A DNA stretch of 64,000 bases, from the NCBI GenBank assembly GCA_004524445.1, contig SDNP01000006.1:1-64000 (forward strand), given 5' to 3'. This stretch comes from Candidatus Thorarchaeota archaeon (GTDB taxonomy: Archaea; Asgardarchaeota; Thorarchaeia; Thorarchaeales; Thorarchaeaceae). The notes beneath the pieces are model-generated. The model was not told where the DNA came from and ran no database searches. It saw only the letters and a program-made list of their open reading frames with translations. How positions within the stretch are numbered: the stretch's first letter is position 1; each line of letters starts with the position of its first letter. This document shows, one piece after another, positions 40,294-43,973 of this stretch. A program made the translations under genes and the position numbers.

Positions 40294-41373
40294 ATGTCAC
40301 TTGCTCGACAGAAACTGAAGAGGAAGATTGAGCAGTTGAAAGAATATCAGGGTCGACACAGCTCCTTCACTACTCTTTATGTTCCCCCAACAAAGAGCCT
40401 GACCGATGTCATCAGCTTTGTCAGGGATGAGCTTGCTGGCGCAGAGAACATAAAAAGCAAAACGAATCGGAAGAATGTTTCTGATAATCTGACTGCGATT
40501 CTTAGTGAGTTAACAAGAATCGGGCAAATGCCGGACAACGGGCTTGCTTTCTTCTTTGGGATTGAAGAAGAAGGAGGTACAGATGAGGAGATTAGAGAGA
40601 TTGTTGTTCCTCCGATGCCAATCTCACAATTCAACTATGTATGTGGCAGGGAATTTGATACAAGCGAACTGGAAGCCATGACGGTCCCAAAGAGCCTTGT
40701 TGTGATAGTTCTCATAGAGGGCGGAAAGGTAACGATAGGTTATCTCCGCGGAAAAAGCATCGAGCTAGTGCGCGACGAAGATTTTTACATCATTGGCAAG
40801 ACACGAGCTGGTGGGCAGAGTGCAAAACGGTACCAGCGTATTCGTGATGAGAAAATCCACGAATTCTACAAGTATGTAGCAAACATGCTTGAGGAACTTC
40901 TTGTCGAGAATATTGATAATGTTGATGCTATTGTTCTGGGCGGAAACACAATCCGGGCACAGGAATTTCTTGAGAAGGGTGGCCTAGACTATCGATTGAA
41001 GGAGAAGATTGCGGATAACATCATATCTGTTGGGATGGTTGATGAATCAGGTCTCTATCAAGCTGTGAAAGAGGCATCTCGAATAATGCGAGAAACCGAG
41101 ATTTACGAAGAACGACACGCCTGGGACGAGTTCATGGAATCACTGATGAAGGGTGATAGAACGGCAACTTATGGCGAGGAAGAGGTTCTAAGGGCTCTGC
41201 GCAACGGGCGAGTGGAAACTCTAATGATTACAGAAGACAAAACAGAGTTAATCGACGAAATATATGATGAATTGGAGAAGTTCGGGACCGATTTGATGAT
41301 ATTTACACCCCAGACCGAATCAGGTGCTCAGCTGCAGAACTTTGGAGGCATCGCAGCCAATCTGCGATGGTAA
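40294..41373 (+). CDS. prf1: Peptide chain release factor aRF1 (compact form)
   Basis: NIKS, YVCGREF (YxCxxxF) and GGQS motifs; C-terminal FGGIAANLR. Confidence 0.88.
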   Translation: MSLARQKLKRKIEQLKEYQGRHSSFTTLYVPPTKSLTDVISFVRDELAGAENIKSKTNRKNVSDNLTAILSELTRIGQMPDNGLAFFFGIEEEGGTDEEIREIVVPPMPISQFNYVCGREFDTSELEAMTVPKSLVVIVLIEGGKVTIGYLRGKSIELVRDEDFYIIGKTRAGGQSAKRYQRIRDEKIHEFYKYVANMLEELLVENIDNVDAIVLGGNTIRAQEFLEKGGLDYRLKEKIADNIISVGMVDESGLYQAVKEASRIMRETEIYEERHAWDEFMESLMKGDRTATYGEEEVLRALRNGRVETLMITEDKTELIDEIYDELEKFGTDLMIFTPQTESGAQLQNFGGIAANLRW

Positions 41374-41377
41374 TGCC

Positions 41378-41788
41378 TCATTTTGGCGGTTCCGGCAGAT
41401 CCGTAAGCGTTTCGATATCTATTATCCAGTTGTTTAGTGTTTCAGATATTTCATTCATGTATTTCATCAGCTGGTCATGAAATTTAGTCAAGTGCTCTTG
41501 AGGAAGTTTTGATGATTTCTTCTTGAAATCACTCACACGTTTAGGCAGCCCAGCCTTCCATTTCTTGAGACTCAGTGTTACTTTCCTGTCTTTGAGAACT
41601 TTTCTTGCAACTCGAGATTCCAGCCTAAGTTCGAGCAATTCTTTTGTGGTGGTTTGGATGCTGATTGCTGCCACAACCAGCTCTTTCACATCTGCCTTGG
41701 TATCTTTGTTCCTGGTTCTATAGTATATTTCTTTGAGATCCCTCTTCGCAGAGAGTACATCACTCAGGAAAGTTCTCAGCTCTTTCAT
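41378..41788 (-). CDS. Basic all-helical hypothetical protein
   Basis: ORF with a GTGAAGAGGT SD-like site, 18 nt after the Cas4-like gene. Confidence 0.65.
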   Translation of the reverse strand: MKELRTFLSDVLSAKRDLKEIYYRTRNKDTKADVKELVVAAISIQTTTKELLELRLESRVARKVLKDRKVTLSLKKWKAGLPKRVSDFKKKSSKLPQEHLTKFHDQLMKYMNEISETLNNWIIDIETLTDLPEPPK

Positions 41789-41806
41789 ACCTCTTCACTA
41801 TCCCTA

Positions 41807-42490
41807 TCAGTCATTACTCTTTTGCTTTGCTTTCGACCACCTACAGAGCTGCTTTGATGCATATGGACATGTGCTGCATTTATGGGGATTTGGCGAAGCT
41901 TTAGGCTCTCTTCCCTCGAACCAATACGGATCCAACTTTTCAAGATTCATCATGGTTTGCTTGGGCGAGAAGCTATCTTCGAAAACTGCACTTTTGTCAC
42001 AACTCAGGCAAAATGCCATTGACCTATTGTGCTGACATTTCATTGCATCTGCCTGGCGACAATATATTACAACAACCTTCGTTGTGCCACAACTCACACC
42101 TGAATCCATCAATGCAAGTGCATACAGCGATGTTTGAAAGACGTCATAATGATGAGCTCTACTCGGAAGATGAGCTGAGGGAAATTTCCTCTCAAAAACG
42201 ACATCCAGAATGGCTGAATCTTCCCAATGCAGAATTGCCATATCGAACCTTCCTTTGAATCGCTTGGAAATCGAATAGACACTCTCCTCTGTAAAGACGA
42301 AATAGTCACCCGCTCTCGTTTCTAATGGCTTCTTCGTAATGAATTGCTTCAAAGACGTTTGGGTGACTGATGACTGTTTAACGAGCTTGGTTAGCTTGCT
42401 GGGTCTGCCATGAATCAACCCGTGGATGGCAACTAATGATAGCACCAAGAATATCAGGAACATGAGAGAGTGGGAAATTGCATCAAGCAT
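41807..42490 (-). CDS. Cas4-like PD-(D/E)XK nuclease, C-terminal part, with an N-terminal TM helix
   Basis: EESV..KGRFD..FERK..QTSLY RecB-like motifs; C-terminal KCSTCPY....LC; N-terminal hydrophobic helix. Confidence 0.78.
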   Translation of the reverse strand: MLDAISHSLMFLIFLVLSLVAIHGLIHGRPSKLTKLVKQSSVTQTSLKQFITKKPLETRAGDYFVFTEESVYSISKRFKGRFDMAILHWEDSAILDVVFERKFPSAHLPSRAHHYDVFQTSLYALALMDSGVSCGTTKVVVIYCRQADAMKCQHNRSMAFCLSCDKSAVFEDSFSPKQTMMNLEKLDPYWFEGREPKASPNPHKCSTCPYASKQLCRWSKAKQKSND

Positions 42491-42491
42491 C

Positions 42492-42746
42492 TCAGAACAC
42501 TATCCAGAAGAATGCGACTAGAATCGCTATGAAAAGAAACAACCACCGAATAGAATTCCCTCTATCAGGTGAGAAGGATGAGCTATTCGTTGCATTTTCA
42601 TGTAATAAAGTACCCGTCACTCCTGATGCCAATTGAGCTGACCCATATTTCCTTCTCAAATGCAGACGATATTCACAAATGAGTTGAACCTTGAGTTCAG
42701 AAACGGTTCGATACTCATCTGGATAATTCATAGATGAGCTTCTCAT
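42492..42746 (-). CDS. Cas4-like N-terminal fragment with a C-terminal TM helix
   Basis: TVSELKVQLICEYRLHL..GTLLHE matches the Cas4 N-terminal S...C...G...H pattern; ends in WLFLFIAILVAFFWIVF. Confidence 0.7.
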   Translation of the reverse strand: MRSSSMNYPDEYRTVSELKVQLICEYRLHLRRKYGSAQLASGVTGTLLHENATNSSSFSPDRGNSIRWLFLFIAILVAFFWIVF

Positions 42747-42794
42747 GGGCTTTCCACTGAAGTTGTACCAGTCTCACACTCAAAAACTGCACAC

Positions 42795-43973
42795 TTATTC
42801 CTTGATGAAAAATATTAACGGAATACTTGACAGAACAAAAATCAGTGGTACAATCAAAGCATTCTGTAAGCCAACACCCGGAATGTCTGCAACATACCCT
42901 GTTATGAGTGGACCAATTGTCCCACCAAAGAAAGCAAAAATTGCGGAGATTCCAAAGAGTCTTCCTTCCATGCCGTCTGGAATGACTTTGGCATATACAG
43001 CTCTAGATATGCTCAAGTTTCCCCCTAGTGCGAATCCCGCTATCGAGGCCACTATTGGATTGGGCAGTATTCCCCCACCGAATAGGACGGCTGCAATCCC
43101 TACACTCCAAAGCGCTAAATTCAGCCCGAGGACCTTCACAAGCCCGATTCGGTCCCCCAATTTGCCATGGAAAAAGGCCCCCAACAATGCACCAGGCAAT
43201 GCCATAGCTAAGAAAAGAGTGGCATTAGTGGCGGCTATTTGTAAAATATCTACCGCAATCAATGAGGCAAAGGTTACAATAGTGGAAACTGCATCGCCCC
43301 AGAGTATTGAGGCAATCAGGAACACTGCAACGGATCTATTACTACGAATCTCATTCAGAGTTCTTGATATTCCAGCGACGAGATTCCTCTCAAGCTTCTG
43401 TTCTCTACTAGTATCTTCTAGATAAACTGCGGGGATAATTGAAAACGTCATCAGGAAGACGGCGATGAAGAGAAGTGCACTTGCTCTCCCTACTACTGTT
43501 TCTATTATCACTGATCCGCCTGCTCCTAATGCGCCTCCAAGGTATCCAAGTAAAATACCAAATCCCGATGTTTCTCCTAGTTTAAATTCCTCAGCTTCAG
43601 CCGCTAGAAACGAATTTGCTCCGATCCACCCTGTTTGTATAGCGGTTGACATCACTCCAAATGCAAGAATTATACGGAAAAGTGAGTTGGAAATGCCCAT
43701 GGTCACAATAGCAATCGATGCAACTAGTGAGGAGAAAAACAAAATCCCGCGTCTGAGTCTAGTGCTATCTTCACTGAAATCAATGAAATTTCCCACAACT
43801 GGAGTCCAAAAAGCTGCCACCACTCCCGTTATTAGTGGCAACCCCCCAACCAGAAGATTCGTGCCACCTTGAGAAATAATGATGAGAGGGAGATACATAG
43901 AATTGACCGCAAAGGCAACTGGTGTCGTTGCGAAGTCATAGAATGCCCAGGCGACTTTCTGCTGCCTCTTCAT
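42795..43973 (-). CDS. MFS transporter (Atg22/UMF1-like)
   Basis: WAFYDFA N-terminus, about 12 TMs, GKLGDRIG, SRAVYAKVIP. Confidence 0.85.
   Translation of the reverse strand: MKRQQKVAWAFYDFATTPVAFAVNSMYLPLIIISQGGTNLLVGGLPLITGVVAAFWTPVVGNFIDFSEDSTRLRRGILFFSSLVASIAIVTMGISNSLFRIILAFGVMSTAIQTGWIGANSFLAAEAEEFKLGETSGFGILLGYLGGALGAGGSVIIETVVGRASALLFIAVFLMTFSIIPAVYLEDTSREQKLERNLVAGISRTLNEIRSNRSVAVFLIASILWGDAVSTIVTFASLIAVDILQIAATNATLFLAMALPGALLGAFFHGKLGDRIGLVKVLGLNLALWSVGIAAVLFGGGILPNPIVASIAGFALGGNLSISRAVYAKVIPDGMEGRLFGISAIFAFFGGTIGPLITGYVADIPGVGLQNALIVPLIFVLSSIPLIFFIKE

Follow-up and report, generated by a model that had tools for sequence, protein, structure and literature searches.

Two adjacent genes of a Candidatus Thorarchaeota archaeon probably encode the two subunits of one membrane-tethered Fe-S nuclease of the PD-(D/E)XK superfamily and of the EXO5/Cas4 ('iron-staple', RecB-like) kind. 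The window, i.e. the whole stretch of 64,000 nucleotides analysed here, belongs to a draft metagenome-assembled genome (64 contigs, 90%-complete), and the genes lie on its minus strand. Gene A (42492..42746, 84 aa) carries an N-terminal piece of the nuclease followed by a C-terminal membrane helix, and gene B (41807..42490, 227 aa) an N-terminal membrane helix followed by the nuclease core and three putative C-terminal Fe-S cysteines. Downstream of the pair and on the same strand lies gene C (41378..41788, 136 aa), a basic four-helix bundle. When rechecked in the sequence, the coordinates and motifs of both A and B were as an earlier note on this DNA had given them. At the A/B junction (TGA-G-ATG, 42488..42494, minus strand) A ends in FFWIVF and its TGA, and a single base G (42491) separates this stop from the ATG start of B in a shifted frame. 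The two genes thus appear tightly coupled, and we propose that their translation may be coupled as well.

A single base between stop and start in a metagenome-assembled draft of so many contigs might suggest an assembly or sequencing artefact, in which one cas4-like gene was broken by a frameshift and the true product is one protein with a transmembrane hairpin. However, A and B were separate ORFs in every locus surveyed, both in the family (22/22) and among the species-level loci of Thorarchaeota (58/58). The frame relations +1, +2 and 0 all occur among the 58 loci, stop and start adjoin or overlap, and the distance from the stop of A to the start of B is 4 nt in 21 loci, -4 in 17, -8 in seven and takes other values in the rest. 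The stop codon of A is TGA in 52/58 loci and TAA in 6/58, and A terminates 0-3 residues past its helix in every homologue. Because the same break recurs in 58 independently assembled species with such varied frames and spacings, the split is not explained by a frameshift. No fused A-B protein was found among 1.84 billion representative proteins, where the 20 clusters at E<1e-30 were 112-252 aa long and the longest B match (P0015, 252 aa) had no A-like N-terminus, and a separate database search likewise gave no fused relatives of near lengths. Longer proteins searched with the A profile gave no match at E<=0.01, although this counts as weak evidence. By all appearances in these sequences, the split is genuine, old and conserved; the artefact, to which we give next to no probability, is in practice already refuted.

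Programmed recoding, either by a frameshift or by stop read-through, would yield one continuous polypeptide from the same genes, its two helices forming a membrane hairpin. The tight junction would suit such a mechanism, as would two loci (L011 and L020) in which A and B share one frame with a lone TGA between them. Nevertheless, a conserved slippery site and a fixed frame relation are both missing, the shift needed would vary between +1 and -1 among genomes, with 0 for a few of them, and B has its own start codon (ATG, GTG or TTG) at the junction in all loci, which together make recoding extremely improbable. Pyrrolysine was considered for TAG codons that seemed to be stops inside B matches and was ruled out, as the TAG is B's own stop read through into the spacer.

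If the pair forms one enzyme as we propose, its Fe-S cluster and active site would each span two proteins that enter the membrane separately, in a layout conserved across a family of Asgard archaea. 'Iron-staple' Fe-S nucleases include AddB, Dna2, Cas4 and EXO5, and to our knowledge all characterised nucleases of the EXO5/Cas4/AddB/Dna2 type are soluble and have their Fe-S cluster on the same chain as the active site. A literature search found no paper on a split or membrane-bound Cas4 or EXO5, and in the accessible part of the Cas4 survey of 2017 the word 'split' is absent and 'membrane' occurs once (PMC5704561).

The likeness of the two pieces to single-chain relatives exceeds what chance would give. 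Residues 12-54 of A correspond to residues 28-70 of these relatives (hhalign 96.7%, E 3.8e-10), and B aligns with them even more clearly (hhalign 99.6%, E 4.9e-25). The relatives exceed the Pfam thresholds for both Exo5 (25.9-37.6 bits vs cut-off 25) and PDDEXK_1, whereas B lies below every curated family threshold: PDDEXK_1 (PF12705) gives 19.5 vs 22 bits and TIGR00372 (Cas4) 11.3 bits vs a cut-off of 65. Among 17 B homologues, six match PDDEXK_1 at E<1 (best 2.7e-4), only two match PF01930 (Cas4; best E 0.023) and one matches Exo5 (PF09810) at E 0.23, missing the threshold. Membership of B in the PD-(D/E)XK superfamily is therefore based on its alignment with the threshold-passing relatives and on its fold. 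In a profile search against PDB, human EXO5 was the best sequence match and the only nuclease match (7LW7/7LWA, E 1.3e-3).

The structure model of B (AlphaFold2, mean pLDDT 88.8) had the Cas4 structure 8d3l, the EXO5 structure 7lw7 and SSO0001 (4ic1) as its top Foldseek matches, with 2.7e-4 for Cas4 and 5.4e-4 for EXO5. Pairwise comparison (VIA) aligned 147 residues of B with residues 54-206 of Cas4 7mi4_A (Z 10.5, rmsd 3.4), and B thus corresponds to Cas4 minus the portion supplied by A. With human EXO5 (7lwa), 149 residues were aligned at 23% identity (Z 8.7; range over the EXO5 structures Z 8.4-8.7), and in the atlas comparison the closest structural cluster was an archaeal Exo5/PDDEXK_1 group. 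Solved structures include SSO0001 (4IC1), Pcal_0546 (4R5Q), type I-C Cas4 (8D3L) and Cas4-Cas1 (7MI4) for Cas4, and 7LW7-7LWA for human EXO5 (Exonuclease V, Pfam PF09810). The modelled Cas4/EXO5 core of B and the alignment of each half agree with the earlier suggestion that the two genes are halves of a Cas4/RecB-type nuclease, and the sequence and model evidence supports A and B as parts of one EXO5/Cas4-type Fe-S nuclease, with the EXO5-like proteins as the closest. In contrast, the expectation that similar pairs stand under generic Cas4 annotations did not hold: the relatives are annotated as 'hypothetical protein', and the present assignment would correct such annotations in ~60 species.

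The diagnostic residues of the superfamily are all present, spread over the two chains. In A these comprise V15-S-E-L, C24, G45 and L48-H49, followed by a hydrophobic segment (66-84), and an alignment of 18 homologues has L18, Q21, C24, L30, G45, L48 and H49 invariant. B has E68, G80-R-F-D83, E100-x-K102, Q119-x3-Y123 and C205-x2-C208-x7-C216, preceded by a hydrophobic segment (8-26); these motif residues and the cysteines of a four-Cys insert are invariant in an alignment of 17 B homologues. RecB motif I (H49) is thus on A, and motif II (Asp), motif III (ExK) and QhxxY are on B. Motifs II and III of B (G80-R-F-D83 ... E100-R-K102; 42185..42253, minus strand) and the QxxxY motif (Q119...Y123; 42122..42136, minus strand) are invariant also in 47 sequences that include single-chain relatives, and QxxxY aligns with FQ.sLY of human EXO5. 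The three predicted Fe-S ligands of B (C205, C208 and C216; 41843..41878, minus strand) are invariant in the 47 sequences and align with CRTCxY..C of human EXO5. Cas4 uses one N-terminal and three C-terminal cysteines as Fe-S ligands (PMC4176176), and the same four-Cys pattern is found across the pair, with C24 on A and the three others on B. This 1 + 3 division, with all four residues invariant in the homologues, bears out the earlier claim that the ligands are split between polypeptides.

Compared to EXO5, B has the fold in common and A+B the motif order (N-terminal Cys helix, His, GxxD, ExK, QxxxY and C-terminal CxxC..C). EXO5 and its archaeal and bacterial relatives (e.g. P0030, P0037 and P0043) consist of one soluble chain (236-378 aa), whereas in A-B the break falls after motif I and before motif II, and each piece has a membrane helix. 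With Cas4 (PF01930/TIGR00372, COG1468) the pair shares the RecB motifs and the 1 + 3 cysteines, but it scores far under the model cut-offs, is not linked to cas1/cas2, consists of two chains with predicted membrane anchors and has the extra four-Cys insert. The metal ligands of the Cas4 protein SSO0001 are His62/Asp99/Glu113 (PMC4176176), and the spacing from C24 to H49 in A is 25 residues vs 30 in SSO0001. Solo-Cas4 of archaea is similar to A-B in lying outside cas loci and being vertically inherited, according to the accessible part of the Cas4 survey (PMC5704561). The insert of B (C144, C152, C161 and C164; 41999..42061, minus strand), in which all four cysteines are invariant in the 17 homologues, probably forms a second metal site. 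It is the lowest-pLDDT block of the B core (66). The single-chain relatives P0030 and P0031 also have a four-Cys insert at the equivalent site, while other relatives have a Cys-free insert.

Both chains are predicted to be integral membrane proteins, each having a hydrophobic segment of ~20 residues with a positive-inside bias; this prediction of the helices is based solely on hydropathy and the positive-inside rule. The helix of A (residues 66-84; 42495..42551, minus strand) has a Kyte-Doolittle mean over its 19 residues of 2.58 in this genome, compared to 2.75 for 60 homologues, and in the homologues the flanks contain 2.2 K/R in the 15 residues before it vs 0.03 after. As no residues follow beyond the helix, A looks tail-anchored. 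The helix of B (residues 8-26; 42413..42469, minus strand), seen at residues 2-27 in the AlphaFold2 model, has a mean of 2.57 in this genome, compared to 2.66 for 58 homologues. In the homologues the K/R count is 0.14 before this helix vs 2.9 in the 15 residues that follow, and the N-terminus of B is predicted to be outside. A signal peptide was ruled out as the identity of this helix: the basic n-region is missing, and it is therefore not a typical signal peptide. The K/R charge bias supports a cytoplasmic location for the soluble parts of both A and B, i.e. the same membrane face and not opposite ones.

In the model of the A+B complex, ipSAE was 0.84 vs 0.02 for the best of three controls; the halves of a split gene can, however, pass through their likeness to solved single-chain structures, and the score thus shows likeness and does not prove binding. 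In the benchmark, the ipSAE mark was reached by 58/80 solved complexes and 2/110 mismatched pairs. The runs share at least 74% of contacts, and the partner pLDDT is at least 69. The heterodimer suggested in the earlier note is thus supported by the modelling, but its assembly through pairing of the membrane helices is not: the confident interface (A 9-55, B 67-218) is confined to the soluble parts, and the helices are outside it. Residues 207-210 and 215-216 of B contact residues 21-31 of A in the model, and although C205 is not named in the list of interface residues, we infer from this list that the four Fe-S cysteines (C24, C205, C208 and C216) may converge.

Instead of anchoring the proteins in the membrane, the hydrophobic segments could serve as a zipper between two soluble subunits, and their position right at the break would suit a device for dimerisation. 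Yet the segments are 19-22 residues long with a Kyte-Doolittle mean of ~2.7, far above soluble helices, they have a marked positive-inside bias and the W/G-rich ends typical of membrane interfaces, and they do not take part in the confident interface of the model. A zipper is very unlikely for these reasons, and a membrane-tethered pair remains the reading that we develop.

In such a membrane-tethered enzyme, A would be inserted as a tail-anchored protein with its N-terminus inside and B as an N-out signal-anchor protein. Such a layout would amount to a transmembrane hairpin that separates motif I from motif II of the fold and is severed at its outer turn. A would contribute the N-terminal helices together with C24, the first ligand of the cluster, and His49 of motif I, and B the beta-sheet core with Asp83, Glu100, Lys102, Gln119 and Tyr123 together with the ligands C205, C208 and C216. 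The catalytic metal ligands would thus be divided, His49 being on A and Asp83 and Glu100 on B, and the soluble parts would complement each other on the cytoplasmic face, so that the enzyme forms only when both meet. Since two polypeptides would jointly build both the Fe-S cluster and the metal site, A or B by itself is expected to be inactive. We infer that a cluster forms in A-B and that the pair works at the membrane, and by analogy with its relatives it may cut DNA, specifically 5'-ended single strands. The pair would be a natural split-enzyme system for studying Fe-S cluster assembly between chains, and a pointer to a DNA transaction at the archaeal membrane.

The nuclease fold could have been kept while its job changed, so that A-B would now act at the membrane as an Fe-S scaffold or as an Fe-S sensor of redox state or iron. 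The two potential metal sites, i.e. the bridging cluster and the invariant four-Cys insert, would fit this, the membrane location is unusual for a nuclease, and a precedent is known in the exaptation of Cas4 as the virus nucleocapsid protein TP1, as described in the accessible part of the source (PMC4625639). However, exapted forms usually lose catalytic residues, whereas H49, D83, E100, K102, Q119 and Y123 are all invariant here and common to the active relatives, and we consider a sensor or scaffold improbable compared to a working nuclease.

The A-B pair is independent of CRISPR. As the earlier note had stated, the window has no cas genes or array: no CRISPR or tandem array was found in it, and neither Cas1 nor PF01930 had a match in the 90%-complete genome. 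Rfam gave no match in the window. Cas1 occurs in 17/41 genomes of the family, always on contigs other than that of A-B, and three genera without any Cas1 all carry A-B. The conserved block consists of A-B-C, aRF1 and pheST, and A-B lies beside aRF1 and pheST in 53/58 loci. Of the two flanking genes pointed out earlier, the basic helical protein (gene C) proved to be a conserved neighbour, found constantly downstream (55/58 loci), but the MFS gene is a neighbour only in this genus and a few others. This MFS/Atg22-like gene adjoins in only 8/58 loci and was ruled out as a partner of A-B.

As a new observation, at least three lineages have either lost A-B or carry it in broken form, while gene C persists downstream. 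A-B is absent from the genus g12 (three genomes, 96-99% complete) and from g15; one genome (G003) has a decayed copy, in two genomes an IS interrupts the pair, and five genomes without A-B have retained C. A-B is thus dispensable, which argues against a core housekeeping role. Dispensability and several losses would also suit an anti-virus defence module with A-B as the nuclease and C as a sensor or adaptor, instead of a cellular DNA-metabolism enzyme; the pair has weak PADLOC Cas4 matches (E 2e-4), and RecB-like nucleases degrade foreign DNA (PMC4176176). On the other hand, A-B is inherited at a constant core-genome site next to aRF1 and pheST, lies outside any island and lacks the patchy distribution of Cas1, C persists without it and the conserved block holds no further defence genes, and we find a defence module unlikely. 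Our best guess, and the most likely role, is non-CRISPR, dispensable processing of DNA ends at the membrane, e.g. of DNA entering the cell, as the earlier note had conjectured. More speculatively, and with considerable doubt on our part, A-B could be a membrane-gated nuclease, active only where the tail-anchored and signal-anchored pieces meet and share the Fe-S cluster, and would process the 5' ends of DNA crossing or touching the membrane during uptake, in conjugation-like transfer or when a virus enters. If true, this would be a membrane-associated DNA-handling device of a sort not known to have been described in archaea.

Homologues of gene C were found only in Thorarchaeota. Its model is all helical (pLDDT 94.5), and the fold search gave no informative match, the best being the IncA helical bundle (E 0.023). 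Sequence matches of C in PDB (a designed homeodomain and SYCE2) look like helical-composition matches, and a weak PADLOC match to LmuB (E 0.003) that covers ~100/588 model positions was discounted. All five genomes that lack A-B have a substitution of the otherwise invariant Gly80 in C, but the same G80A is also present in a locus that keeps A-B (L058) and is therefore not used as evidence of contact. An obligate third subunit is not supported for C, as it is kept in the five genomes without the pair. Gene C is a linked, separable neighbour of A-B, and the repeated natural losses in which it is kept offer ready comparisons for finding the function of the pair.

In the window, a minus-strand run of four ORFs is formed by an Atg22/MFS-type transporter (42795..43973, according to Pfam), gene A (42492..42746, 84 aa), gene B (41807..42490, 227 aa) and gene C (41378..41788, 136 aa), where A is the N-terminal piece and B the remainder of an EXO5/Cas4-like nuclease. 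At the A/B junction, TTC-TGA closes A and a single G precedes the ATG of B. All the motifs named in the earlier note were found at their given positions in A and B, and the observation of a split nuclease gene pair is confirmed as real. A-like and B-like sequences lie in different stop-to-stop frames in 22/22 loci of the family and in 58/58 species-level loci, with the stop of A 0-3 residues past its hydrophobic segment in all loci but one (11 residues) and the start of B at or adjoining that stop codon. The spacing is 4 nt in 21 loci, a 4-nt overlap in 17, an 8-nt overlap in 7 and other values elsewhere, and frame relations of +1, +2 and 0 were all seen. When 1.84 billion representative proteins were searched exhaustively with a profile, 20 close clusters were obtained, all of 112-252 aa, and past these only distant single-chain proteins (E 1e-8 or weaker); neither this search nor one in a second database found a fused A+B form. 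Thus, the claim of two separate genes holds, and because the frames are separate, the spacings and frame relations vary and fusions were not found, neither a sequencing error nor a recoding signal conserved at the junction is, for practical purposes, a tenable cause of the split.

Public records annotate the A and B proteins as hypothetical. Alone, B scores 19.5 bits against Pfam PDDEXK_1, just below the threshold of 22, and very weakly against Cas4 models. The distant single-chain matches (236-378 aa) exceed the Pfam Exo5 and/or PDDEXK_1 thresholds, and in profile-profile comparison A 12-54 aligns with their residues 28-70 (96.7%, E 3.8e-10) and B 78-224 with 105-254 (99.6%, E 4.9e-25). Human EXO5 was the sole nuclease match in a PDB sequence search (E 1.3e-3). 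The AlphaFold2 model of B (pLDDT 88.8) matches the nuclease domains of Cas4, EXO5, SSO0001, MGME1, Dna2 and AdnAB; in VIA-align it fits the Cas4 domain of 7mi4_A at Z 10.5 over Cas4 residues 54-206, that is, Cas4 minus the first ~50 residues, the portion provided by A, and EXO5 at Z 8.4-8.7 with 22-23% identity. In the ESM Atlas, the structural cluster closest to B is an archaeal Exo5/PDDEXK_1 group. Computation gives good support to the predicted EXO5/Cas4-like Fe-S nuclease of two membrane-tethered chains, and literature searches for a split or membrane-bound Cas4/EXO5 yielded no account of such a pair. The one other PDDEXK_1 match in this genome, a 243-aa protein (L081:1357-2088, minus strand, contig C18), does not have the four-Cys pattern and is thus a distinct PD-(D/E)XK protein.

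One N-terminal and three C-terminal Cys ligate the Fe-S cluster of Cas4, and the catalytic metal ligands of SSO0001 are His62, Asp99 and Glu113 (PMC4176176). In the homologue alignment, C24 and H49 on A and D83, E100, K102, Q119, Y123, C205, C208 and C216 on B are invariant, which places the chain break between motif I and motif II; judged from sequence, the cluster and the active site would each require both chains. Also invariant are the four Cys of an insert in B (C144, C152, C161 and C164), probably a second metal site; two of the single-chain relatives likewise carry a four-Cys insert at this position.

Both proteins have a strongly hydrophobic segment (Kyte-Doolittle mean of the best 19-residue window 2.75 for A in 60 sequences and 2.66 for B in 58). 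Lys+Arg average 2.2 in the 15 residues preceding the helix of A versus 0.03 following it, and 0.14 preceding versus 2.9 following the helix of B, so that under the positive-inside rule the soluble parts of both are predicted to be cytoplasmic, which would agree with the need of an Fe-S enzyme. On this prediction, A is tail-anchored and B has an N-out signal anchor; together they would resemble a transmembrane hairpin severed at its outer turn. The A+B complex model supports binding, with an ipSAE of 0.84 (best of three controls 0.02; the mark is met by 58/80 solved complexes and 2/110 mismatched pairs), at least 74% contact agreement between runs and a partner pLDDT of at least 69. Since halves of split genes tend to pass by resemblance to solved single-chain structures, the model shows a Cas4/EXO5-like fit and not cellular binding. 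Its confident interface joins A 9-55 with B 67-218 and includes A 21-31 facing B 204, 207-210 and 215-216. The membrane helices lie outside this interface, and the earlier suggestion of assembly through TM pairing is therefore not borne out.

The earlier note also placed the pair between a transporter and the helical gene C. This is so in the window, but the transporter side is not conserved, as an MFS gene adjoins A in just 8/58 loci. The conserved block is A-B-C with a convergent aRF1-type release factor gene (40294..41373, plus strand, NIKS and GGQ motifs) and, also past C, pheS and pheT; C is present in 55/58 loci, aRF1 in 53/58 and pheS in 44/58, a count affected by the many loci that end early. 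The aRF1-type gene, which adjoins C in those 53 loci, is short (359 aa) yet has eRF1 domains 1-3. A conserved gene of ~140 aa is found in divergent orientation just upstream of A in most other genera (e.g. L033:5059-5481, minus strand), and the Atg22/MFS transporter takes its place in the genus of the window. In one species locus (L035:5838-7200), A and B are intact but C is absent and aRF1/pheST do not follow downstream, the sole case seen of A-B without C and probably the outcome of a rearrangement. As a single-protein query, B was found in 21/24 genomes of the same family and 0/16 outside it, and single-chain relatives are sporadic in other Asgard families. The absence of cas genes and arrays near the pair was upheld: Cas1 and PF01930 had no match in this genome and the window has no repeat array. 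Cas1 is patchy across the family (17/41 genomes) and was not found in the searched genomes of three genera, all with A-B. From this patchiness, the conserved block and the family distribution, the pair is a form of the 'solo-Cas4' theme (PMC5704561) that belongs to the family as a whole, is inherited vertically and is independent of CRISPR.

New here are losses of A-B. Three genomes of genus g12 (96-99% complete) gave no match to either A or B, and none lies beside the kept C of G015; in G003, A is reduced to its first ~45 residues, followed by unrelated sequence, and B is lost. In g12, C has the divergent ~140-aa gene as its immediate neighbour, as if A-B had been cleanly deleted. A TnpB-type IS lies inside A in G018 (L008/L034) and L062. 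In these two related genomes, a TnpB-like ORF (IS200/IS605 OrfB-type, CxxC...CxxC, ...NAARNI...) ends within A (L008:1-600, equal to L034, and L062:5600-6000), leaving in frame the last ~50 residues of A in L008 and the membrane helix only in L062, with B and C intact in both. C is intact and unchanged in position in g12, G015, G003, G018 and L062, and it stands beside aRF1 in five genomes without B (L093-L097; G003, G015, G112, G059 and G012). The pair is thus dispensable and C independent of it. Limited to Thorarchaeota, C is modelled confidently as a four-helix bundle (pLDDT 94.5), for which a fold search gave no informative match. Its Gly80 (41549-41551 in the window) is G in 59/60 distinct sequences from genomes with B, and A or S in 5/5 genomes without A-B. 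The exception with A-B, L058, shares G80A with its relative G003, so the tie between Gly80 and the presence of A-B is suggestive only. In g12, C is also altered at W77, P82 and V85, positions that are conserved otherwise.
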